Shown here piece after piece: positions 13,757 to 43,144 of a DNA stretch of 43,144 bases. Every line of letters starts with the position of its first letter. Positions within the stretch are counted from its first letter, which is position 1. The position numbers and the translations under genes were made by a program. Origin of the DNA: Candidatus Ratteibacteria bacterium (GTDB taxonomy: Bacteria; Ratteibacteria; UBA8468; B48-G9; JAFGKM01); contig JBKBIN010000009.1 of NCBI GenBank assembly GCA_046296715.1, forward strand, positions 1 through 43,144, read 5' to 3'. The notes under the pieces were generated by a model. It saw only the letters and a program-made list of their open reading frames with translations, did not search any database and was not told where the DNA came from.

Positions 13757-15009
13757 ATAAACTCTCTCCTTTGGCATTCCTTGATTCTTTAAGTGATTTT
13801 GGGATTAAACTTGGGCTTGATAAAACAATTTACTATCTTGAAAAACTTAGCAATCCACATAAAAAATTCCCTTCTATCCTTGTTGCAGGAACAAATGGTA
13901 AAGGGTCTGTTTGTAAAAGTTTAAGTAAAATCCTACAATTATCTGGATATAAAGTTGGTCTATATACAAGTCCTCATTTAATTGATGTAAGAGAAAGAAT
14001 AAGAATAAATGAAAAAGAAATAGATCAAGAAGAATTTGTAAAAAAAATTGAGCAATTGCAAAAGATTATAGAAAAACAACCATATCACCTTTATCCAACA
14101 TATTTTGAGGCACTTACAATAATTGCATTTTCCTATTTTTATGATAATAAAATTGATATTCTTGTCTGTGAAGTTGGTATGGGTGGTAGGTTTGATGCAA
14201 CGAATGTTTTGCCTTCTTTTTTAAATATAATAACAAAGATTGGCCTTGACCATACTGAGTTTCTTGGTAAAACATATAAAGAAATAGCAAGTGAAAAAGC
14301 AGGAATAATTAAAGAAAAAACAGTTGTAATAACTGCAAAACAAAAAGAAGATGCGTACGAGATTATAAAGAAAAAAGCAAAGAGACAAAAATGTAAACTT
14401 TTAACTTATGGAATTGATTTTAAAGGCAAAAAAGTGTTATTTTTACCTGAAAAGATGGTTTTTAATTTTTATGGAAAAGAAACATTTAAAAATTTAGAAA
14501 CAGACCTTATTGGAATGCATCAGATTGAAAATTTATCAATTGCAATTCAGGCAGCAATTACTCTAAAAGAAAAAGGATACAGAATCAAGGAGGAAAATAT
14601 AAGAGAAGGACTTAAAAATATAAACTGGCCTGCAAGGTTTCAAATTCTTCAAAAAGATCCATATATTATTTTTGATGGAGCACATAATCCAGATGGAGTT
14701 AAAAACTTAATGAAAAATTTAAAAAAGATATTTCCAAATAAAAAATTTTCATTTCTTGTAGGGATTTTGAAAGATAAGGATTATGAGAAAATGGTAAGAA
14801 TTTTTGAGAAATATACAGATAGAATAATTTTTACAAAACCAAATTCAGAAAGGGCAATTGATCCAAAAATTTTAAAGGGACTTTTAAAAGATAGGAAAAA
14901 AGTAGAGATAATTGAAAACCCATCAGATGCTTATAACTACATAAAAAGAACAAGAGAAAATTGGTTAATTTTTGGTTCTCTTTACCTTGCCTCAGATATA
15001 CTTAATTAA
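13753..15009 (+). CDS. folC: Folylpolyglutamate synthase/dihydrofolate synthase
   Basis: VAGTNGKGS, YTSPHL, EVGMGGRFDATN, IGLDH, EKAGII, DGAHN, FGSLYL. Confidence 0.96.
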   Translation: MNKLSPLAFLDSLSDFGIKLGLDKTIYYLEKLSNPHKKFPSILVAGTNGKGSVCKSLSKILQLSGYKVGLYTSPHLIDVRERIRINEKEIDQEEFVKKIEQLQKIIEKQPYHLYPTYFEALTIIAFSYFYDNKIDILVCEVGMGGRFDATNVLPSFLNIITKIGLDHTEFLGKTYKEIASEKAGIIKEKTVVITAKQKEDAYEIIKKKAKRQKCKLLTYGIDFKGKKVLFLPEKMVFNFYGKETFKNLETDLIGMHQIENLSIAIQAAITLKEKGYRIKEENIREGLKNINWPARFQILQKDPYIIFDGAHNPDGVKNLMKNLKKIFPNKKFSFLVGILKDKDYEKMVRIFEKYTDRIIFTKPNSERAIDPKILKGLLKDRKKVEIIENPSDAYNYIKRTRENWLIFGSLYLASDILN

Positions 15010-18000
15010 TAATAAGAAAGATTACGCAATCTTATTGTTAAATTTTTAACAGGGACTAACTCTGTAAGGTCGAGGGTTTTCTTTGCCATTTCTATTGCAA
15101 TCCCCTTTATTTTTACAGGATAAACTAAATTCTTGCCCTGTCCTCCGGTGACAACCCATTGTCCTGAAACTCCACCAGGTACCATTTTATCGTAATCAAG
15201 AGGCGAATCTTTTGTAATCGGAAATTGTATAAAACACCATCCATCAAAGTTTATTGATGCTATACTTGGCCAATCATGTATGTCACAACCCCATCCTCCT
15301 GTGCCGCAAGAGAGAAAAGTTTTCCCTTCCGCATCTTCTATTTCAAACATAACTCTTCCCCAACTTGAATTCCCTTTTACCCAAACACCAATAGTTGTTG
15401 GTTTTCCTTCAATAATAACAGGATTTTTTAATCTTAAAATTGTGTATTCATTTACAATATCTGCAAGTTTATTATTTGGGATCAACTCTAATTCTAAACA
15501 TTTTCCCATCTCTGAATCCACAACTTCTCTTAAAACATAATTGCCACATGTTCGCAAAGGAAGATGTCCTCTTTCTGGGACTTCTAAACGATTATCTTTT
15601 TCTTTTAGTATTTCCCATTCTGCAAGATTATTCATTCTATTTGCTATTTTTGCTTTTTCAAATGCTTTATTTTCAGAAAATTTTCTTTCTCCTGCTTGAA
15701 TTTCAATAATTGAAAAGTTACTAATAATGTATTGAACATCTGTTCTTGCGTCCAATTTTAATTCATAGTTTTTAAGTTGAAATAATTTTTTTCTACCATA
15801 CAGGTCTTCAACAGCGACTTCTCCATCTTTTTCAAATCTTATTTTTGTTTCACAAATACCTCTTGGTACCCAAATGGCATATATAAATTGAGAATTTCTT
15901 TTAAATTCTAAAGCATAAAGAGTAAAAGATCCTGTTGGAACTCTACGGATAAACAACGCTCCATCTAGGATTCTTGTTAAATTTGATATTGCGACATAGA
16001 CCGGTTTAGGGTACAAAAGTGGATATCTTTTTAAAAAACCTCCTCCACCCCATAAAGTTTGATAATAACAGTTACCAACATCATAAAGAAGCCCAAGTGA
16101 AATAGTCGGGAATTTGTATGCAAGTGCAATTAAGCCATCCCTGACAAACCATTCAGCGTGTATTTTTTCGCCTAAAATTCTTGCCTGTCTTGTAATCCAT
16201 TCATAACATGAGGTTACAGGTATTTCATAACCAAACTTTCTTCCTGTTTCTCTTACAAACCATGCTGCCTGAGTTCCTCCTTCAATAAGTTTTTCTGGCA
16301 TCCATGTTTGACCCGCTGCTTCTATTCCAAAGTAATCAATGTTTTCTCGTGGGTATCCTCTTTTGAAGAACTCTGCAACTAAATCTGAAACTGAATTACA
16401 GTTCCCAAAAACAATTTTTATTTCCGGAAATTTCTCTCTTAAAACTTTTGTTGCCATAGATGCTATTTTAATAAGTCCCTCTATCTCTTTATTCTTTTTT
16501 TCATCTATTGGTTGTGGCTTTGTGCAATATAATTCAGATGGTATAAAATTACCTCCATAACTTTCATGAAAGACGATTGCATATTTACAATTAGGCCACT
16601 TCTCAAGATAGGATTTAACCCAATCTTCATAGTTTTTATACTGAATTTCCAAGTTGCTTTCAATTTTCCACCCGTTCCACCATGGAATCTGAAACAGGGT
16701 TACTTTCCATTTACTCATAGATTGTTCTGAGAGATTACCATGCCATGCAGGAGAAAAAATAGAATGTCTTAAGCCGGCTTTTAGAAAAATAGGGCCTATA
16801 ATTTCAGGGTCAGCTGTTCCTAAATGTGCTCCTCCAAACCACCATGTTCCAAAAGGCGATTCATAACCAGATTTCCTTGTATCATCAGGGAGTATTGCGA
16901 AAGAGGCAGGATGTTCAATCAAAATTCTTTTTTTTGTATCTAAAAGGCGGATTTTTATACTATACCAGCCATTCTCTTTAGAGTGAAGAGGAATAATCAA
17001 TGTTTCTGTTTTTATATCTTCAAAAAATATTTCCCTTTGCCCATATGATACAAGATTTTTGTCTATGTCATTTATTTCCCATATCAAAAAATATTTCTCA
17101 TTCCTTTTCTTTGGGAAAAGATTTACAAACATTTCTGGCTTTTCTTTTTTTTCATAAATGTTCCCTATCTGTGCTGGTAAGACCTTCATCATAATAGGTG
17201 TCTTTTCCAGTGTTATGGCAAAAATATGAACTCCACTTATAATATCATTCGCTGGCTTCCGAGTAAAGTCCCATTGAGTGGTAATTTCTCCTGTCTTACC
17301 TAATATTTCAAAATCAAGATAATTTGGTTGAGGCAACATTCCATTAAAGTAGTCCCCTCCCATATTATAAATTAAATCCTGTATTTCTCCAATTTTAAGA
17401 AAGACCTCTATAAAATATAATGGGGCTTTTTTTTCATTCCCTTTATTATCAATGTATGTTATAGTTCCAATTTTTTTAATATTTTCTTTAAGTTTTTCAC
17501 CTTCCTTTGGGATATAAACAGTTGTATCTGCTATTGCATCTCCACGACCTTGAATATGATAACGGGTTAATCTTGTCGTGAAAACAGGTTCTTTATTAAA
17601 AGTTTCTTCAACAGAACATAAAACATATACTCTTATGTACTGATCAAGGGGCACTGAATAATGGAGAAATTCGGGTAATCCATCAAAAGGAGTTCTGCTT
17701 AAATATAAATCAATCTCATAATGTGTTTTTGAATAGTTTTTTACATTACCTAAATCAAAATTCTCACCATTGCCAATTATAAAAGGGACTCCATTAACAT
17801 AAGTAATCCCAGATTTGAATGGTATTTTGACACTTTTCATTATACCAGGGTTAGAATGAGTAGTTATGTCCAATAATAAAAAATTTGAATCAACAATCTC
17901 AGTTTCACATTTACACTCCTTTATTTCTGCATCCTCATTTGCTTTAAAAATTACTTTTTTTAATCTTGCCTTTATCTCATTAAAACCTACATAATTTCCA

Positions 18001-18422
18001 TTTATCCAGAATTCTATTCTTGAATTATTAATCTTTTTTATAACAAATGGGAAAAATACTTCACTTGCAGAAGATAGATTTTTCCAGTTTCTTAATATTT
18101 CATTTTTCCTATCTCCTAATTCATAAAATTTAAGATTTGGTCTTACAAAGTATTTAATTTTAAATTCTGGGAATTCTATAAAAGCATCTATTTGTTCTCC
18201 AATTCCCCCTGAATAAGCGTTAATAATTGTTTTTATCCCATCCTCATATAATAAAGTTATTGTTATTCCGGGTTTTTGTGTTCCTACTTTTAATAATGCC
18301 TTTATTTCACAATTTCCTTCAGGGACAGATAATTCCATTTCTTTGTTGCCCTCACCAGCATTTAAAAAAAAGACAAACAATTGAAATTGAAGTATCAGAA
18401 AAAATATATAAATTTTTTTCAT
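15006..18422 (-). CDS. Large secreted multidomain protein, putative clan-A-like glycoside hydrolase with carbohydrate-binding-like domains
   Basis: Signal peptide; Ig-like segment then SPFG..TIM-barrel-like region ending YPKPVYVA (GH39/GH5-like layout); C-terminal WVKGNSSW..EIEDAEG..INFDGW beta-sandwich motif. Family not assignable by eye. Confidence 0.55.
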   Translation of the reverse strand: MKKIYIFFLILQFQLFVFFLNAGEGNKEMELSVPEGNCEIKALLKVGTQKPGITITLLYEDGIKTIINAYSGGIGEQIDAFIEFPEFKIKYFVRPNLKFYELGDRKNEILRNWKNLSSASEVFFPFVIKKINNSRIEFWINGNYVGFNEIKARLKKVIFKANEDAEIKECKCETEIVDSNFLLLDITTHSNPGIMKSVKIPFKSGITYVNGVPFIIGNGENFDLGNVKNYSKTHYEIDLYLSRTPFDGLPEFLHYSVPLDQYIRVYVLCSVEETFNKEPVFTTRLTRYHIQGRGDAIADTTVYIPKEGEKLKENIKKIGTITYIDNKGNEKKAPLYFIEVFLKIGEIQDLIYNMGGDYFNGMLPQPNYLDFEILGKTGEITTQWDFTRKPANDIISGVHIFAITLEKTPIMMKVLPAQIGNIYEKKEKPEMFVNLFPKKRNEKYFLIWEINDIDKNLVSYGQREIFFEDIKTETLIIPLHSKENGWYSIKIRLLDTKKRILIEHPASFAILPDDTRKSGYESPFGTWWFGGAHLGTADPEIIGPIFLKAGLRHSIFSPAWHGNLSEQSMSKWKVTLFQIPWWNGWKIESNLEIQYKNYEDWVKSYLEKWPNCKYAIVFHESYGGNFIPSELYCTKPQPIDEKKNKEIEGLIKIASMATKVLREKFPEIKIVFGNCNSVSDLVAEFFKRGYPRENIDYFGIEAAGQTWMPEKLIEGGTQAAWFVRETGRKFGYEIPVTSCYEWITRQARILGEKIHAEWFVRDGLIALAYKFPTISLGLLYDVGNCYYQTLWGGGGFLKRYPLLYPKPVYVAISNLTRILDGALFIRRVPTGSFTLYALEFKRNSQFIYAIWVPRGICETKIRFEKDGEVAVEDLYGRKKLFQLKNYELKLDARTDVQYIISNFSIIEIQAGERKFSENKAFEKAKIANRMNNLAEWEILKEKDNRLEVPERGHLPLRTCGNYVLREVVDSEMGKCLELELIPNNKLADIVNEYTILRLKNPVIIEGKPTTIGVWVKGNSSWGRVMFEIEDAEGKTFLSCGTGGWGCDIHDWPSIASINFDGWCFIQFPITKDSPLDYDKMVPGGVSGQWVVTGGQGKNLVYPVKIKGIAIEMAKKTLDLTELVPVKNLTIRLRNLSYY

Positions 18423-18474
18423 GTAAATCCTCCTTGTATATATATTAAAAAAATAACATTCAATGGATAACTAA

Positions 18475-19125
18475 CTAATCCTGTTCTGGTGTCCAGAAAC
18501 ATATATTTTCATAAGGATTGTTAGAAAAAGATGGTTTGTCTATCTCATTTCGTTTATAAGAGTTCACATGTCCATCTACCCATAATACATTCAAAAAAGG
18601 ACCATGACGACTTTCAGGGATAGAGTAGCCCGCGTTAAAAGCCCAAGGGAAGGCCCATGGATTTATCGATTCAATTACACAGATAGTTCGTGTTGGGTCC
18701 TGTACTATGCTTATTTGTTTGAATGCTCTTTGTGCAACAGGACCATCAATAACAGCATATCCAAGATAAGCGTTGTATCCATAAGTACATTCATAGCCAA
18801 ACCAGAAAGGTGGTTTTCTAACAGAGGGACAAAGATAAACCTTTTTATTCTTATGATAGGGATAAAGAACATCTAACCAGGAAGGTCCACTTGGAGCAGA
18901 TGCTGAATACACTGTAGCAGGCATATATTCGTCATTATCTTGAACATACATAAGGAAAGCCTGACCAATTTGTTTTAAATTATTCATACAAGTTGCCTGT
19001 CTTGCTTTTTCTCTTGCCTTACTTAATGCTGGTAAAAGCAATGCTGCAAGAATCGCAATTATCGCAACTACAACAAGCAACTCTATTAATGTGAAGCCAT
19101 ATGGTTTTGAAAATTTTTGTTTCAT
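18475..19125 (-). CDS. Prepilin-type N-terminal / H-X9-DG (DUF1559-like) protein
   Basis: [60 protein letters not shown]. Confidence 0.92.
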
Positions 19126-19183
19126 GCTGCACCTCCTTTGAAATTTAATCTATATAAAATCATATTTTTCTTCTTTTTAACTT

Positions 19184-19912
19184 TTAAAAAGCTGGTACGT
19201 AATTTCCTCCACCATCAGGGTTAATTGAATTTGTCTTGCTATATGCTTGGTCAGGAACAAGTCCAAAATTTCCACTTCTTAAAGAACCTAATTTTTTAAA
19301 TTCTACATGACCATCCAAAAATAAATAATTACCTCCTGTATAATTATTATGTACTACGCCATACCATTCAATACCAGAAGCATAGTAGTGCCAATAAGAT
19401 AATGTAGTTCCAGCAGGAGGTGGTAAATTATAAACTGGCCTACAGAAGAGGTATCTGGATCTATATCTCCACTCATGAATAATAACAGTAGTTGAAGGGG
19501 ATTTACATACTGAAATTTTTCTCCCTGAAAGCACATGGTTAATTTGATAATTGGTATCATCTGTTTTTGTTGGTGCAAGAGATGAATATGGGAGCGCTGT
19601 TGGACAAGTCAATAATTTTGTATTTTTAATATATGGTAAAATAGATTTGAAAAAATTAGGCGTTGTTGAAGTGGTAAAATATTCTACCTGACCAATATGA
19701 GGATCGGCAGGAAGTAATTCATTATAATCGCTAACATACATTGAAATAGCTATCCCGATTTGTTTTAAATTATTCATACAAACTGCTTGTTTTGCTTTTT
19801 CTCTTGCCGTGAATAATGCAGGTAAAAGCATAGCTGCAAGGATTGCAATTATTGCCACTACAACAAGAAGCTCTATTAGAGTGAACCCTGTCTTTTTTTG
19901 CCACTTTAACAT
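19184..19912 (-). CDS. Prepilin-type N-terminal / H-X9-DG-like (DUF1559-like) protein
   Basis: [56 protein letters not shown] (slightly longer spacing). Confidence 0.92.
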
Positions 19913-19929
19913 TTTGGCTCCTTTTTTAT

Positions 19930-21009
19930 CTATTCTAAACAGGCCCGAGGGACTCCCCTCTTATTTTTCCTTTCCGGCCTGATACCTGTTGAGTCCCTTT
20001 CTATTAGTTCTGGTTTTATAAATTCTTCAATTTTTTTGTTGTCCCCTTCAATTTTTTTAATTATGTTTTCAGCTACTCTTTTGGCAATTACTTCTTTTTT
20101 TTGTCTGATAGTTGTTATTGGAATAGGTGATATAATTGAAGATAAAGAATTGTCAAAACCAATAATTCCAAGTTGTTCAGGTATTTTTATACCAAGTTTT
20201 AATGCACTTTTTACAAGCCCAACAGCAATCTCATCATTAGAGGTAAAAATAGCAGAAGGCCTATTTTTATCTTTTAATATTTTTATCCCTATTTCCTCTG
20301 TCTTTTTTATTAAAGTTTCTATATTACTGAAATACTCCTTTTTGATATAATATTCTTTGATATCCAAATTTTTTTCTTGTGCAAATTTTAAAAATCCATT
20401 TTTTCTCTCTTCTATAGGCAAATCCTCTGTTTTCTCCCCAAATAAAATACCAAATTTTTCATATCCCTTTTCATATAAATGTTTTCCCGCAATATATCCT
20501 CCTTTAAAATAATCTGTTGAAATAAAATCCGTTTTTGAATCTCTAAATCTTCCAATTGTTATAAAAGGAAAGTTTTTATTTATAATTTTTTCAATTTCTT
20601 TATTTATCCCTTTTTCTTTTCCAACTACAAAAATTATTCCATCAACTCTCCTGCTTAAAAAATCCCTTATTAATGCCTCTTCTTTTTCAATATAATTTTT
20701 TGTATAGCCGATAAATAGATGATAACTTTTTTTCCATAAAATAGATTCTAAAATTTCTATATCAACTGTTATTTCTGAATAATAAAGATGTGGAATTATA
20801 ACTCCTATTGTATTTGTTTTTTTATTTCTTAAACTTCTATATAAAAGATTTGGATAATAACCAAGTTGTTCAGCAATTTCTATCACTTTTTTTCTTGTTT
20901 TTTCTCCAGCAAAACAGGTTGGATTATTATTTAAAATTGCAGAAACAGTTGATACAGAAACATTTGCTCTTTTACTAATTTCCTTTAATGTAATCTCCTT
21001 TAAATTCAT
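19930..21009 (-). CDS. LacI-family transcriptional regulator
   Basis: [61 protein letters not shown]. Confidence 0.95.
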
Positions 21010-37279: not shown

Positions 37280-38965
37280 ATGAAAAAATTTATCTTGATT
37301 ATACTTATTTTTCTTATTTTCTTTATTAGAGAAATTATTGTATCTTACGAAAAATCAATAACTTGTGATGAAACGGTTCACATTCCAGCAGGGTATTTTT
37401 ATGTTAAAAAAGGGGATTTTTTTATAAATTATGAACATCCACCGTTTTCCAAAACTCTTTCTGGCATTTTTCTTTTAACCAAAAAGATTTTTTTCCCAGA
37501 AGATTTATATAAACAATTAAGGGATAATGAATGGGATTTTGGTAAAGCATTTTTTTATTTAAATAGAGAAAATGTTGATAATATAGTTTTTTCTGCACGA
37601 TTTCCAATGATCTTACTTAGTATTCTACTTGGATTTTTTATATACTTGTGGTCAAAAGAGTTATATGGTTTTTTTGCTGGTATTTTTAGTTTATTTTTAT
37701 TTTCTTTTTGTCCAAATTTTCTTGGCCATAGTTGTCTTGTAACCACAGATGTTCCATTTACAACTTTCTTTATTATCTTCCTTTATTTTTTGTCAAAATT
37801 TTTCCAAACAGATGATAAAAAGTATCTAATTTTTTCAGGTATTTTTTTTGGTCTTTCTATTGGAACAAAATTTACTGGAATTGTTATTATCCCATTTATA
37901 ATCCTTATTTTTTTGATTTTAGAGACAAAAGCATCTTTTAAGAATAAATTTAAATTTTTACTTCCCTATTTTCTTGTTAGTTTTATTTTAATCCCATTTT
38001 TAATTTTGCTTTTTACATATAGAATTTATGGTTTTGGTAATTTTTTACTTGGATTAAAACAAATAATTTTTGAAACAACTGAAAGAGGGCATAAAAGTTT
38101 TTTAAATGGAAGGTTTTCAAATTATGGATGGAGATATTATTTCATATTTGCTTTCCTTTATAAAACTTCAATACCTGTAATAATTTTTTTCATTATTTCA
38201 ATTCTAATTCAAAGAAAAATTGAGAAAAAAGAGATTTATTTGATTTTTCCAGCAATTATCTATTTTGTCTTCTCTTCATTAAGCAAAAAACAGATTGGCA
38301 TTAGATACATTCTTCCATTTTATGCTTTAATTTATATCTATTGTGGTAGAATAATTTTTTATCAGGAGAAAATAAGGATTAATCAAAATTTTAAAAAGAT
38401 TGTTTTTTATTTATTAATTTTCTGGTATATTTTTTCATCTTTTAGAATTCATCCACATTATCTTGCTTATTTTAATGAAATTATAGGTGGTCCGGATAAT
38501 GGCTGGAGATATTTAATTGACTCAAATATTGATTGGGGACAGGATTTAAAAGAGTTAAAAAAATATTTAAAGAAAGAAGGTGATCCAGAAATTATGTTTA
38601 ATTATTTTGGTTCAATCTTTCCGGAAACATATGGAATAATCTACGAGCCATTTTTTTCTCCTCTCTTATTAATGGCAAATCTTCCTGATCAATATTACCA
38701 TATAAACTCGCCTTTTCCTTCAAAAGAATATTTAGTTATAAGTGTGAATTGTTTGCAAGGATTGATGTATGAAGATATAAATATTTTTAGTTGGCTAAAA
38801 GAGATAAAACCAAAAGCAAAAATTGGATATAGTATGTTTGTTTATGATATTACGAAAGATATATATATAAGAAAAAAACTTTTAGAGATGTTTGAAAAAT
38901 ATGGATTTGAAAGACAAGCAGAAAGACAGAGAAGAATAATTAAGATTCTGGAAAACAAAGATTAA
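37280..38965 (+). CDS. GT39/ArnT-PMT-like membrane glycosyltransferase
   Basis: TCDETVH..AG, EHPP..K, LVTTD, TKFTG, IGIRYILP, YFNE..GG, DSNIDWGQDL. ATG 37265 is an alternative start. Confidence 0.85.
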   Translation: MKKFILIILIFLIFFIREIIVSYEKSITCDETVHIPAGYFYVKKGDFFINYEHPPFSKTLSGIFLLTKKIFFPEDLYKQLRDNEWDFGKAFFYLNRENVDNIVFSARFPMILLSILLGFFIYLWSKELYGFFAGIFSLFLFSFCPNFLGHSCLVTTDVPFTTFFIIFLYFLSKFFQTDDKKYLIFSGIFFGLSIGTKFTGIVIIPFIILIFLILETKASFKNKFKFLLPYFLVSFILIPFLILLFTYRIYGFGNFLLGLKQIIFETTERGHKSFLNGRFSNYGWRYYFIFAFLYKTSIPVIIFFIISILIQRKIEKKEIYLIFPAIIYFVFSSLSKKQIGIRYILPFYALIYIYCGRIIFYQEKIRINQNFKKIVFYLLIFWYIFSSFRIHPHYLAYFNEIIGGPDNGWRYLIDSNIDWGQDLKELKKYLKKEGDPEIMFNYFGSIFPETYGIIYEPFFSPLLLMANLPDQYYHINSPFPSKEYLVISVNCLQGLMYEDINIFSWLKEIKPKAKIGYSMFVYDITKDIYIRKKLLEMFEKYGFERQAERQRRIIKILENKD

Positions 38966-38981
38966 CAAGTGTTCCCATCAA

Positions 38982-38996
38982 ACACCTACGAGGTGT
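38982..38996. repeat. Palindrome ACACCT-ACG-AGGTGT (core shared with the 54-bp repeats)
   Basis: CACCTACGAGGTG also occurs at 39220-39232 and 42959-42971. Confidence 0.85.
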
Positions 38997-38999
38997 AAA

Positions 39000-39028
39000 T
39001 GGAAAAAGATGGAAAAAGATGGTATAAT
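39000..39028 (+). promoter_or_regulatory. tRNA-Ser promoter: extended -10 preceded by a 10-bp tandem repeat
   Basis: TGGAAAAAGA x2 then TG-G-TATAAT (39020-39028), 8 nt before the tRNA. Confidence 0.6.
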
Positions 39029-39036
39029 AGAATAAA

Positions 39037-39127
39037 GGAGGGGTAGCATAGTGGTCTAATGCGGCGGATTGCTAATCCGTTGTGTCGTCGAAAGGCGGCA
39101 CCGTGGGTTCGAATCCCACCCCCTCCG
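39037..39127 (+). tRNA. tRNA-Ser (GCT), CCA not fully encoded
   Basis: Acceptor GGAGGGG/CCCCTCC, anticodon arm GCGGA-TTGCTAA-TCCGT, long variable arm GTGTCGTC-GAAA-GGCGGCAC, T arm GTGGG-TTCGAAT-CCCAC, G73. Confidence 0.97.
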
Positions 39128-39138
39128 CTTGCTATATC

Positions 39139-39168
39139 TCAGGAGGGGGTGCTTCCCCCTTCCTGAAA
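39139..39168. other. GC-rich hairpin downstream of tRNA-Ser (terminator or REP-like element)
   Basis: TCAGGA-GGGGG-TGCTT-CCCCC-T-TCCTGA, followed by a C-run; no clear U-tract. Confidence 0.55.
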
Positions 39169-39186
39169 TAGTTCTCCCCCCACAAC

Positions 39187-39240
39187 GAAAAAGATTGGCA
39201 GACAATCCTTTCCACCTGTCACCTACGAGGTGAAGAAGGT
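39187..39240. repeat. Direct repeat copy A (54 bp)
   Basis: GAAAAAG-ATTGGCAGACAATCCTTTCCACCTGTCACCTACGAGGTGAAG-AAGGT; 2 mismatches to 42926-42979. Confidence 0.95.
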
Positions 39241-39246
39241 ATTAAT

Positions 39247-40887
39247 TCATTTCCAGTTTGATATGAGTTTTTTACATTGTTCTCCGGCTGGGCTAAGTTT
39301 GTTTTCATCCGTGAAGAGATTTTCCATTATTCCAATATAAACACCGTCAAAACCAAATTTTTTGCTTTGTTCAAATGTCCATTTCATCTTTTCAGGAGAA
39401 GGAGCAACATCTACTTCTCCAATTATCTTAACACCTAACTTTTTAATAAGTTCTATATCTTCTGTTGACTGCCAATCTAAAGCAGGTAAATGGGTGTAGT
39501 CAATCAATCCTAATTTTTTTAGATTTTCAATATAAAAGATTGGATATCGCGCTGAATAAAAACGTTGTGGATAAGTAGGAACAGAATGAGCTAACCATAG
39601 CCAATATTCTGGTTCATAAACTATTTTTACTGCTTCAGCAAGTTGAACACACCATTTAAACATACTCCATCTATAGAAATTTAGGAATACCCATCTTTCT
39701 CTGTTATAATTAAAACTTTTCGGAGGATTTATATCTTCAAAAGAAGCATAGTTAGTACACCAGTCTGTATTGAGTAATTTTATATCCTTTTTATAAAAAT
39801 TCATAAGATACTGCCTATATGCTTTTATAGCATAGTCATCAAAAGCCCAAATATGAGACCATTCATAAGAAATTTCTGATTCTTCCCCAGGACAAAGAAA
39901 AATAACTTTTATGTATTTTAACAAATTTTTATTCTTAAGATAATTCAATGAATAAACAATATGGTTTCTCCATATTCTATAACTCTCTGGATGCCATGGG
40001 GAAAGAAAACAAGCCTCTTTGTTATAAATTTGTCCCAATTCATTTTTAGGGAAAAGATCTGGATATTTTTTTATAAATTCCTCTGGAGGTGTATTATAAA
40101 ACGAAATACCTATCATAATTCCTGTATCTTTTACTAAGTTTATAAAGTTGGCAACTTTTTCAAGCATATTATTATATTCATCTTTATTTTCCTTTGGGAA
40201 ACCAATAGGATAAATATGGAGATTAATCCCAATATCATTAATTGCAGAATTAATTCTTATAAGAATATCTTTTTCATTTCCAACGCCACCCCATGTATTA
40301 AAAACTGGGGAAGGGATTTTTTTTGTTTTTATTGGATTTTTAATAAGTTGAGGTTTTGTCATTTCTATTCTTTTGATTAATAGTTCTCCAGAAGAATCTT
40401 TTTTCTTTTCGCTTATTATAAAACGAAGAAATTTTACTTCAGGATAAAAAAAATGAAATGGTTCACTTGCTGGAATTTGAATGTGTTGCCAAGAATCATT
40501 GTCAAGAGAAATCGTAGATAAAAGAATCCATTTATCTTTATAGGAACACCAAACCTGTAGTTTATTTCCAGAAGAGTCTCCTTTAAGATAAAACTTTACT
40601 GTTTCATAAGGTATATCTACAACAGGCATCTTAAAATCAAAATTTACCTCTTCTGAAGATGTTTCTTTGAAGTCATATTTAACTTTTAACGTTTTCTCTC
40701 CTTTTAAATTATCAATAGAAAGTGAAATTCCTAAAGAGTGTTGCCAATTTTTTAAATCTTTTTTAAAATCTTCCAAAATAAAAATCTCTTCTGTGATAAA
40801 TTTTGGAATAGATATTTCAGTAAAGGAAATTTTTGAACTTACAAGAATAAAAAAACATAATCCCAAAATAGATTTTAGATTTTTCAT
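39247..40887 (-). CDS. Secreted GH42/GH14-like glycoside hydrolase with N-terminal carbohydrate-binding-like domain
   Basis: Signal peptide from ATG 40887 (AGGAGG RBS); FYLKGDSSG..W domain; LSPWHP, CPGEESE, FDDYA..AYRQYL..Y..I..LN.DW.TNY.SFEDINPP motif seen in GH42/GH14-type barrels. Confidence 0.65.
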   Translation of the reverse strand: MKNLKSILGLCFFILVSSKISFTEISIPKFITEEIFILEDFKKDLKNWQHSLGISLSIDNLKGEKTLKVKYDFKETSSEEVNFDFKMPVVDIPYETVKFYLKGDSSGNKLQVWCSYKDKWILLSTISLDNDSWQHIQIPASEPFHFFYPEVKFLRFIISEKKKDSSGELLIKRIEMTKPQLIKNPIKTKKIPSPVFNTWGGVGNEKDILIRINSAINDIGINLHIYPIGFPKENKDEYNNMLEKVANFINLVKDTGIMIGISFYNTPPEEFIKKYPDLFPKNELGQIYNKEACFLSPWHPESYRIWRNHIVYSLNYLKNKNLLKYIKVIFLCPGEESEISYEWSHIWAFDDYAIKAYRQYLMNFYKKDIKLLNTDWCTNYASFEDINPPKSFNYNRERWVFLNFYRWSMFKWCVQLAEAVKIVYEPEYWLWLAHSVPTYPQRFYSARYPIFYIENLKKLGLIDYTHLPALDWQSTEDIELIKKLGVKIIGEVDVAPSPEKMKWTFEQSKKFGFDGVYIGIMENLFTDENKLSPAGEQCKKLISNWK

Positions 40888-40903
40888 ATCTGTTCCTCCT
40901 TTT

Positions 40904-41671
40904 TTATTGTTGAATTGGTGACCACCATATTTTATAGTTAGATGAATTCCAAGTAGCCCAATCAAAATTAGTAAGGTTAGGGCTACTTATACCGGCTTTA
41001 TAAGGGTCATACCAGGCTACATGTCCATCTCCAAAAAGGAAATTTGCACCTCCATTATGTAAGGTCATTAAGTTCCCTCCATCTGAATTTTTTTTCAATC
41101 TTTCAAAAAAGCCATAATCCCAAGCAAAACTTTCTACACCAGCCCATCCTAATGATTCTGTAGCAATAATAAATTGAGTAGGATTTTTAATACGAGAAAC
41201 TTTTAATGAAGAAGTTGTTCCTGTAGGCCATTCATATACAGCACGATTTACACAATAACTTCTCATTCTATATCCATGGTCTAATCTTCTATCACTTGGA
41301 CAGTTTAGGATAGGTGGATAGTATTGCCCCCAGTCAGTATTCCAATTTGAGTTGGGAATATATCCTCCTCCATTCCAATCGCGGGATTTTGCAATGAAAA
41401 GTAATGGTTCAACTCTCAGATAAGGTCTTGGGAAGTATTCTCCATAATCTTCTACATACATAAACAATGCTAAACCTACCTGTTTTAAATTGTTCATACA
41501 CACTGCTCTTCGTGCATTTTCTCTTGCTTTTGAAAGTGCTGGCAATAACATTGCTGCAAGAATAGCAATGATTGCCACCACCACTAACAATTCTATTAAG
41601 GTGAAACCCTGTTTTCTTATTTTTATAATTCTATCATACTTCTTTCCCAAATTTTTCTTTTTTCTTTCCAT
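40904..41671 (-). CDS. Prepilin-type N-terminal / H-X9-DG (DUF1559-like) protein
   Basis: [58 protein letters not shown]. Confidence 0.93.
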
Positions 41672-41684
41672 TTTCCCTCCTTTT

Positions 41685-42767
41685 TTATTTTTTTGCTATA
41701 GATTCTCTTATTATTATTTCCCCTTTTATTATTGTTCGTTCTTCGGTTAATTCTCCTTTTAATATTTTTGCAAGTTTCTCCATGGCTTTCTTACCAAGAA
41801 GATATGGAAAGATATCAAACGTTGTAAGTGCTGGATGAATATAAGCTGTAAAAGGAGAATTATTGCATCCTACAACTGCTATATCATCAGGGATCTTTTT
41901 ACCTATTTTCTTCAATGCTTGTAAAATTCCTATTGCTATTAAATCATCTGCTCCTATTAAAGCGTCAACATTATGTTTTATTAATTGATATGTGTTCTTA
42001 TATCCATTTTCTTCAGAAAAATCACCATATTTAACAAGTTTTTCGTCAAAATAAATGTTAAATTTAGTAATAGCTTTTTTATATCCTTCAAGGCGATCTT
42101 TACTAACAGTTAAATGTTGAGGCCCATTTATAAATCCAATCTTTTTATAACCGTATTTAATAAGAAGTTTGGTAAGATGATATCCTATTAAAATATTGTC
42201 ATTATCAACGCTTTTTACCCCCTGTTCAGTGGGATTTCCAATTACTACGAAGGGGAAGTTTTTATTTTTTAACATAGTTATCCTTATATCTTCTATTTTT
42301 GGATTTGTAAGTATCAAACCTACAATCTTTTTTTCTTCTATATCTCTTATATAATTGTTTTCATTTTCTGTGTAAAGAAGTAAAGAAAAATTTTGTTTAG
42401 ATGAGACAGATTTTATCCCTAATAGTAAATCTGTAATAAAATGAGTGAAATAAGAATTTTTTATTTCGGGAATAACTACTCCTATGGTTTCTGTTTTGAC
42501 TGTGGATAACAAATTTATATTATCATTTACATAAGTGCCTTTACCCGGGACTCGGAAAAGGATGCCTTCTTTGGTAAGTTCAATTAGTGCCTGTCTAACT
42601 GTAATATGACTAATATTAAAAATTGCACACAATTTTCTTTCAGAAGGGATTTGTTGTTTGGGTAAAAAAATTCCCTTTGCAATCTGTTGTTTAATATACT
42701 CTTTTACTTGTATATACAGAGGTACTGGACTATTACGAGTTACAAATTTCTGTACATTTCTGTTCAT
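41685..42767 (-). CDS. GntR-HTH plus LacI-type sugar-binding domain regulator (AraR-like architecture)
   Basis: [33 protein letters not shown], then periplasmic-binding fold with [19 protein letters not shown]. Confidence 0.92.
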
Positions 42768-42925
42768 ATCTGTATATATTATATCATAAACTTTTTATTC
42801 AACAAATTTTTCTAATCTAATATTTTTTAAAGAAAATTGATAAATGGAGGTATTTATTCATTTAGATTTAATTAAAATACCTATTGACAAGATTAAAAAA
42901 CATGTTTTATTTTTTAGATTGTTTT

Positions 42926-42979
42926 GAAAAACATTGGCAGACAATCCTTTCCACCTGTCACCTACGAGGTGAAGGAGGT
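42926..42979. repeat. Direct repeat copy B (54 bp)
   Basis: GAAAAAC-ATTGGCAGACAATCCTTTCCACCTGTCACCTACGAGGTGAAG-GAGGT; 42-bp core identical to copy A. Confidence 0.95.
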
Positions 42980-43144
42980 TTAAAAGGAGGGAGAGTTTTT
43001 GAGGCGGACAGTTGTTTCTATTTTTATTGGATTCATATTTTTCATAGCAGGTGAGGTTGATTTTCCATACAAAATTATCTTTACATAAGTTATTGTATCT
43101 GTATATGTCTGGTCATCTGTTTTTAATGAACCATCAGCATAATA
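42980..43144 (-). CDS. C-terminal end of an uncalled gene, possibly a PilW/PulJ-like minor pilin (partial)
   Basis: Open frame YYADGSLK..ITYVKIILYG..PIKIETTVRLKNSPSF* ending at 42980; the terminal T.V.L.N strand resembles minor pilins. The product call is weak. Confidence 0.5.
   Translation of the reverse strand, partial: YYADGSLKTDDQTYTDTITYVKIILYGKSTSPAMKNMNPIKIETTVRLKNSPSF

Follow-up and report, generated by a model that had tools for sequence, protein, structure and literature searches.

A carbohydrate-enzyme cassette between two copies of a REP-like hairpin unit in a Candidatus Ratteibacteria genome, and its possible link to an HUH Y1 transposase

A contig of 43,144 nucleotides from a Candidatus Ratteibacteria bacterium (NCBI GenBank assembly GCA_046296715.1, contig JBKBIN010000009.1), called the window below, carries a three-gene cassette that lies next to a tRNA-Ser gene and between two 54-bp direct repeats. 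Our analysis indicates that these repeats are two copies of an approximately 50-bp unit resembling a repetitive extragenic palindrome (REP). On balance, we favor the view that the cassette was gained at a resident copy of this unit and that the unit was duplicated, probably through nicking by a transposase and DNA synthesis by the host. The window is contig C9 of the source genome (G000), which is 1.64 Mb in size and 91.8% complete, and the genus comparison covered 11 genomes including G000. In the following, the labels G001–G010 include the congeners of G000, L numbers denote extracted loci, and X1 and X2 denote metagenome runs.

The two repeats (39187–39240 and 42926–42979) are in direct orientation, are identical at 52 of 54 positions, and lie 3,739 bp apart. 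This agrees with a preliminary description made from the sequence alone, which also correctly placed a regulator gene, a DUF1559 pilin-like gene, and a hydrolase gene, and no recombinase, between them (Table 1). Each copy consists of a 33-nt arm (one mismatch between the copies), a 13-nt core (no mismatch), and a further 8 nt (one mismatch). The full 54-mer occurs only twice in the genome, and this pair is the best match among the 528 pairs formed by the 33 core sites of the genome (mean 29.2, standard deviation 4.0, of 54 positions). The repeat folds into a core hairpin and a second hairpin in the arm. The mutually exclusive alternative fold that had been proposed earlier was abandoned, since as RNA it has an energy of −6.7 kcal/mol, versus −19.4 and −15.9 kcal/mol, and a pair probability of about 0. 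On the minus strand, the distance between stop codon and repeat is 6 nt for one copy and 0 nt for the other, as first described. The only terminator-like sites in 38900–43144 are the two repeat copies, each on the minus strand just past a stop codon; this count is not above chance (two found versus a mean of 2.8 in shuffled sequences). Transcription termination could favor the retention of both copies. A promoter-like site at 42884–42913 (plus strand) reads towards the right repeat, has no gene behind it, and is possibly a relic of a divergent gene at a donor locus. An Rfam scan of the window returned the tRNA and weak overlaps only, and a locus-specific 26-mer had no match in the JGI metagenomes. 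A 16-mer had three viral matches, all single copies in GC-rich sequence and probably due to chance.

The state of the locus without the cassette was found in relatives. In X2, which comes from another study and in which the flanks are approximately 96–97% identical, one contig joins position 39186 directly to 42926 (depth 5.1, with a short side of 90 letters) and a second contig joins 39130 to 42928, with no real coverage of the cargo. Similarly, a single site lies between tRNA-Ser and the next gene in G001, G004, and G006 (the G004 contig ends just past the site). The empty site that the preliminary description had named as a check thus exists. In G002 and G003, the tRNA-Ser interval holds a different, membrane-protein-like gene, and its contents also differ in G006 and G010. 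The simplest reading of these sequences is that the cassette was gained in this lineage, and it was likely gained at a single resident hairpin, with duplication of the target unit. The earlier remark that the repeat is too long for a target duplication was wrong in effect, because only one copy is present in the empty allele and the arm is specific to the locus. The suggestion of an integron-like array continuing past 43144 also failed, in that a conserved prepilin-like gene follows and no additional site was present on the G006 contig carrying the orthologous locus. In G006, the single site is directly preceded by a short segment copied from the 3′ end of tRNA-Ser (L002 3498–3511; G006:C49), which resembles an integration scar. 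In the window itself, tRNA-Ser shares no 10-mer with the sequence downstream of 39200, so the repeat is not a copy of the tRNA 3′ end, as had been stated; a tRNA-targeted integrative element was rejected because of this and because the cargo has no integrase. It is scarcely conceivable that the duplication is an assembly artifact. The genome is metagenome-assembled and no single X1 contig spans the stretch, but two positions distinguish the copies, the flanks of each copy are unique, the X1 contigs cover both junctions, and the flanks are adjacent in relatives. The cargo depth in X1 (22.5–22.8) matches that of the flanks (23.3 and 19.2), although X1 is possibly the source sample and hence not independent.

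The arm of the repeat is locus-specific because it derives from a second hairpin repeat linked to tRNA genes, designated element B (39135–39223), whose tail it forms. Element B matches G000:C5:51811–51897 at 88.8% identity over 89 nt, and it was also found in L048, L062, L127, and L287 and at the orthologous locus in G010. At the locus studied here, its orientation is opposite to that of the tRNA and it is joined to the REP core. Among the genome and the stored loci, this fusion of long arm and core occurs in these two copies only; therefore, the second copy would have been made from the target, unless the filled locus came whole from an unsampled relative. At C5, element B sits between two copies of a tRNA-Arg 3′ segment, and in L048 it lies near a tyrosine integrase gene.

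The preliminary description recognized only two copies of the repeat at the locus. However, a third core with diverged arms is present at 38983–38995 and 30 exact cores occur elsewhere, giving 33 exact copies of the 13-bp core (a 5-bp stem with an ACG loop) in G000, or 34 at ≤ 1 mismatch, where 0.003 are expected. All copies have the same loop, are intergenic or at gene ends, and are scattered in both orientations as singlets; convergent junctions are favored (7 of 30 versus 28 of 413). The 33-site profile has an invariant asymmetric center and flanks that are degenerate yet symmetric. It contains no GTAG/GTGG foot 0–2 nt 5′ of the stem, and GTAG is found inside the hairpin on the minus strand. 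The ten congeners contain 30, 29, 10, 8, 7, 2, 1, 0, 0, and 0 exact cores, and among 30 genomes of other genera the core was found in one, as a single copy. Loop types also vary, with 8 ACG-loop and 28 TAA-loop copies in G005 and further loop types in G001. A second hairpin type has two copies in G000 (C27:1378 and C59:3697); its transposase occurs in G006, G007, and G016 and was not found in G000. In metagenome loci of other organisms, the core forms inverted doublets in 12 of 44, many of the 44 matches being likely due to chance. Head-to-head inverted doublets with variable spacers, similar to REPINs, were seen in higher-GC organisms (L295, L300, L304, L310, L312, L313, L316–L318, L320, L328, and L330); L300 has six doublets in 10 kb. 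G006 and G000 have 11 sites in common. The core does not vary among these, and positions −2, −1, +1, and +3 differ in 11, 10, 11, and 10 sites, respectively, with the changes running towards each species’ own consensus. This suggests that sites are rewritten or converted in place; the sites shared by G004 and G000 have no such sharp core-adjacent pattern.

Duplicated units were also found around other genes. We compared pairs of same-loop sites within 6 kb of each other, using 162 sites from six genomes (incomplete for G001 and G005). Of the 25 direct pairs, four shared at least 28 of the 33 nt of one arm; none of the 17 inverted pairs did, and in the distant background the count was 2 of 1789. 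The four repeats are 54, 49, 50, and 55 bp long, and all end 33–37 nt from the core. The pair on C8 of G000 brackets an apiosidase-like glycosidase gene, which G007 lacks at the corresponding position between these flanks and which is 95% identical to the G006 copy, versus 83–87% for the flanks. The G005:C34 pair brackets a nucleotidyltransferase gene and a 66-aa gene, and the G005:C44 pair an old peptidase gene. When a second arm was sought within 15 kb of each of the 33 sites of G000, only the C8 and C9 pairs were recovered. At 17 orthologous junctions that have a site in G004 or G006 and none in G000, the length differences range from −163 to +101, and six are +41 to +62. The common distance at which the duplications end and the gain size of approximately 50 bp suggest an end point set by an enzyme. 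Two further arrangements were observed. A DUF2204-like nucleotidyltransferase gene with a small gene lies near a site in G000 (C7:49096–50057) and between duplicated units in G005 (L178 1532–2229). A 790-aa gene beside a single site (G000:C2:109586–112203; L190) is absent there in G002, G003, G004, and G006; G003 has the site without the gene, and no second site copy was found.

The candidate for such an enzyme is an HUH Y1 transposase. In G001, G004, G005, and G006, the core occurs on both sides of a Y1_Tnp gene of 201–212 aa (approximately 205 aa, RAYT/TIRYT-like), and a search for a Y1 transposase beside a copy, proposed in the preliminary description, thus gave a positive result. The transposase of G000 was detected only via these relatives because its copy is cut after 61 aa at a contig break. 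Contig C20 starts with the upstream site and 61 initial codons (85% identical). When G000 was searched for Pfam Y1_Tnp and for resolvases, there was no match, and panC, the neighbor of the transposase gene, is also missing from the assembly. In G009, the gene is present as a broken remnant. A structure prediction (pLDDT 93.8) has its best counterpart in E. coli TnpA-REP (PDB 4ER8; E 2.5e-7), followed by IS608 and ISDra2, and the sequence profile agrees with this ranking. We examined 56 homologue loci, 49 of which have full flanks. The same hairpin lies on both sides in 25 of the 49, versus 0 of 157 control windows, and 4 of the 25 are the genus’s own genes. Homologues flanked by the exact core also occur in records from three other phyla (L228, L234, and L262), and the closest transposase relatives are on Ca. 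Omnitrophota records. Hairpin types follow supported clades in a 34-row tree of loci from this analysis, in which kin share labels, so that this is not a formal co-evolution test. G005 has two paralogues, each flanked by its own loop type (8 and 28 copies). There is one gene per hairpin type, and paralogues are about 60% identical; in L057 1300–5940 (G005:C36), two transposase paralogues lie 2.3 kb apart within an eight-site cluster. The motif Y[IV]HLNP is present in 43 of the 49 homologues, and the consensus also has LWE and SSY. The HuH motif is THxH in 45 of the 49 and unmatched in four, and its T is invariant in 43 alignment rows. No helix-turn-helix (HTH) Pfam hit was obtained at E 0.05 in five transposases, and the structure model ends in two helices. 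Longer relatives (307–325 aa), one of which has GGGG-type terminal repeats, form a separate clade. Taken together, a trans-acting HUH enzyme tied to the repeat is supported.

The preliminary description had proposed a trans-acting recombinase or an HUH enzyme; the second part stood, and the integrase-type recombinase did not. That the repeat is an att-like site of an integron- or Xer-type tyrosine recombinase, within a cassette array, is very improbable. Its invariant asymmetric center and degenerate symmetric arms would suit such a site, an empty allele exists, and the genome has two tyrosine recombinases. However, both are best described as XerD/XerC, and they reach 129 and 120 bits with the integron-integrase model, in the catalytic domains only, against a cut-off of 265. 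Moreover, tyrosine recombinases are present in all 11 genomes of the genus, three of which have no site, the attC R′/R″ motifs are lacking, and the sites occur in both orientations and flank the Y1 transposase rather than a recombinase. A 757-aa tyrosine recombinase encoded beside one site of G009 was also considered as the cognate enzyme and rejected; it was found in a single genome with only two exact sites. On G009:C155 (L051 8172–13906), a 753-aa gene with an HTH and a tyrosine recombinase domain stands beside two tRNAs, followed by a site and a PLD-SNF2 helicase gene.

According to the available text of one study (PMC3333891), the TnpA-REP enzyme of E. coli cuts single-stranded DNA at some distance from the hairpin, on both of its sides, and transfers strands, and a nick-primed synthesis model has been proposed for the addition of a REP unit. 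We infer that this mechanism may be carried over to the present locus, where the hairpin was possibly duplicated by the Y1 transposase and where a catalytic part of this enzyme in capture would follow the same model. The transposase would bind the hairpin in single-stranded DNA and nick about 33–37 nt away, where an A-tract terminates the long arm. Synthesis from the resulting 3′ end would copy arm and core before the strand is joined to incoming DNA, leaving arm and core on both sides of the cargo, and recombination between the repeats would then permit loss of the cassette. Gene capture would be an occasional outcome of the hairpin system and not its main job, because most hairpin copies carry no cargo.

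Several observations weigh against cassette gain with enzymatic duplication of the unit. The transposase gene of G000 is itself incomplete in the assembly, and G003, whose genome is 90% complete, has 10 sites and no match to the transposase gene. The finding studied here is one of the four pairs, without which the count is 3 of 24, and the two mismatches between its copies leave the crossover point undefined. The empty allele of the C8 locus in G007 has no site at all, no empty allele of the G005:C34 locus was found in the 11 genomes, and the peptidase gene of the G005:C44 pair is syntenic in G000 without sites. The best homologue of the cargo in G005 is on a 3.4-kb contig without a core. Two further checks named in the preliminary description gave nothing: no circle junction was found among the contigs listed, which are unable to show circles, and no alternative cargo was found between the repeats. 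Furthermore, synteny breaks are not enriched at junctions that carry a site (20 of 54, versus 48 of 107 for the others). In this control, loci were chosen around sites, and we dropped junctions at contig ends (8 and 3), those with neither gene matched (5 and 14), and all gaps < 40 bp. On the basis of this control, hairpins were rejected as module borders. The cassette-boundary role assigned to the repeat earlier was not supported, since the core is a common dispersed REP-like element, which the preliminary description itself had named as evidence to the contrary. Copies were also not characteristic of other DUF1559 modules, since only two of nine DUF1559-like genes other than the cargo lie within 2.5 kb of a hairpin site.

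The lack of enrichment at synteny breaks also fits an explanation to which we give a lesser, though still appreciable, chance: the transposase only scatters hairpins, and host recombination or template switching joined the cassette, relying on the 13–21 bp over which the cores are identical at one end and on microhomology in a short A-tract at the opposite end, with the arm duplicated as a by-product. The genome offers 33 perfect 13-mers for such an event, the tRNA-Ser interval is unstable in any case (its contents differ in G002/G003, G006, and G010), and E. coli REPs have been linked to recombination points around O-antigen clusters, with no enzyme named in the available text (PMC3158064). 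In contrast, all four duplications end at 33–37 nt from the core and fit the single-site gains of approximately 50 bp. It is improbable that the cassette came by another route and the unit was then copied across locally, the empty allele of X2 having arisen by deletion between the repeats. The near-identical units around an old gene at G005:C44 are what local copying would produce, and sites are often gained and rewritten in place. However, no residual flanking sequence separates the cargo from either copy, X2 and three congeners all have one site while two others hold a different gene there, and the hydrolase occurs in one of ten congeners, at 50% identity.

Among known systems, the closest is that of REP/BIME/REPIN sequences and RAYTs (TnpA-REP, YafM, 4ER8; Quentin 2.2 and 2.5; Bertels Groups 2 and 3). 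Both have dispersed extragenic hairpins, the same hairpin flanking a single HUH Y1 gene, a hairpin type for each paralogue, a bias to convergent junctions, and the same fold. Inverted doublets of the core were seen in 12 of the 44 metagenome loci from other organisms. Here, in contrast, there are tens rather than hundreds of copies, which are singlets in this genus, and units are duplicated around kilobase cargo; the proteins score below the NF047646 cut-off (65–69 bits for three proteins, 66.5 in the comparison, versus 80). The system works like REP/RAYT and is not a canonical member, because it lacks the GTAG foot and falls below this cut-off. With TIRYT/TIRtrons (TnpA-Y1 subclass 2.1 of Quentin 2018, RAYT Group 1 of Bertels 2017), it shares the YIHLNP, WE, and SS motifs and non-GTAG flanking repeats; compared by published motifs, it differs in its size of about 205 aa, in THxH instead of NHxH, and in having no Pfam HTH tail. 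TIRYT repeats are non-GTAG, and some are self-complementary and multi-copy (available text of Di Nocera 2013, PMC3733652); the REP-like kind is thus already known from such repeats. The accessible parts of other studies report no REP-like sequences for subclass 2.1 enzymes (Quentin; PMC6006769), whereas here the hairpins are dispersed genome-wide, and limit REPINs to RAYT Groups 2 and 3 (10.1101/2021.07.10.451892). The IS200/IS605 elements (IS608, ISDra2) have the same HUH/Y1 fold and terminal hairpins, and differ in that the present enzymes have Y-x3-NP (YIHLNP) in place of Y-x3-Q, each hairpin type has a single gene copy whose locus is conserved, and tnpB is absent. To our knowledge, IS200/IS605 elements make no target duplication. 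Integron attC cassettes resemble the locus in having a gene module between two related short sites and an empty allele, and pdif modules also consist of a gene module between two related short sites. Here, however, there is no IntI, attC motif, or array, and the sites do not track XerC/D. In the literature, searched mostly outside subscription journals, we found no account of this hairpin family or of cargo between duplicated REP units; the published lists of terminal inverted repeats (supplements and figures of PMC3733652 and PMC6006769) could contain this palindrome.

The features of the locus are listed in Table 1. The enzyme had been described as GH42/GH14-like; a weak GH42 match was obtained (E 7e-6), and GH14 was not seen. 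Its homologues are ≤ 50% identical, one labeled Ca. Omnitrophica and one beta-galactosidase. Of the promoter described ahead of the regulator, an extended −10 sequence can be recognized, and a two-hexamer consensus scan found no minus-strand sigma-70 pair upstream of this gene. The GC content of the cargo resembles that of the flanks. Elsewhere in the window (15006–21009), a second regulator gene, two DUF1559 genes, and an unannotated 1138-aa gene have no core near them.

Table 1. Features of the cassette locus (window coordinates).
Feature	Position	Strand	Remarks
Third 13-bp hairpin core, diverged arms	38983..38995	+	Upstream of tRNA-Ser; G004 and G006 without core there
tRNA-Ser(GCT)	39037..39128	+	3′ end without repeat at right border
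Element B, second tRNA-linked hairpin repeat	39135..39223	+	Tail forms long arm of 54-bp unit
Left copy of REP-like unit	39187..39240	+	Core 39220–39232; terminator-like on minus strand
Predicted secreted GH42-like glycoside hydrolase	39247..40884	-	545 aa from ATG; longest open reading frame starts at 40965
Prepilin-type N-methyl, DUF1559, H-X9-DG protein, 255 aa	40904..41671	-	
GntR HTH fused to LacI-type sugar-binding domain, 360 aa	41685..42767	-	
Extended −10 consensus, predicted promoter	42778..42786	-	10 nt upstream of regulator start
Right copy of REP-like unit	42926..42979	+	Core 42959–42971; copy matched by empty allele
Conserved prepilin-like gene, 3′ end	42980..43144	-	87% to G006; follows single site in relatives

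The reason for which RAYT genes and REP hairpins are retained in bacteria is a standing question: the available text of two studies describes the copying of REPs and leaves its benefit unresolved (PMC6006769; 10.1101/2021.07.10.451892). In this genus, at least two carbohydrate-enzyme cargos lie between duplicated units and have empty alleles in relatives, and a clade related to the “REP-less” subclass 2.1/Group 1 has cognate dispersed hairpins whose loop type tracks the enzyme clade. If the transposase makes these junctions, they represent a compact means of acquiring genes that can be put to the test; otherwise, the locus would still be an ordinary insertion or deletion bounded by repeats, within a REP family that has apparently not been described. 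As a broader and more doubtful proposal, a compact cross-phylum Y1 clade with the motifs of this “REP-less” class may run sequence-specific landing pads throughout the genome, rewrite these pads in place, and capture genes by copying a unit of approximately 50 bp to both sides of the cargo. If this were true, REP/RAYT systems would gain a concrete job, the acquisition of genes, together with a code in the hairpin loops by which an enzyme is matched to its own pads.

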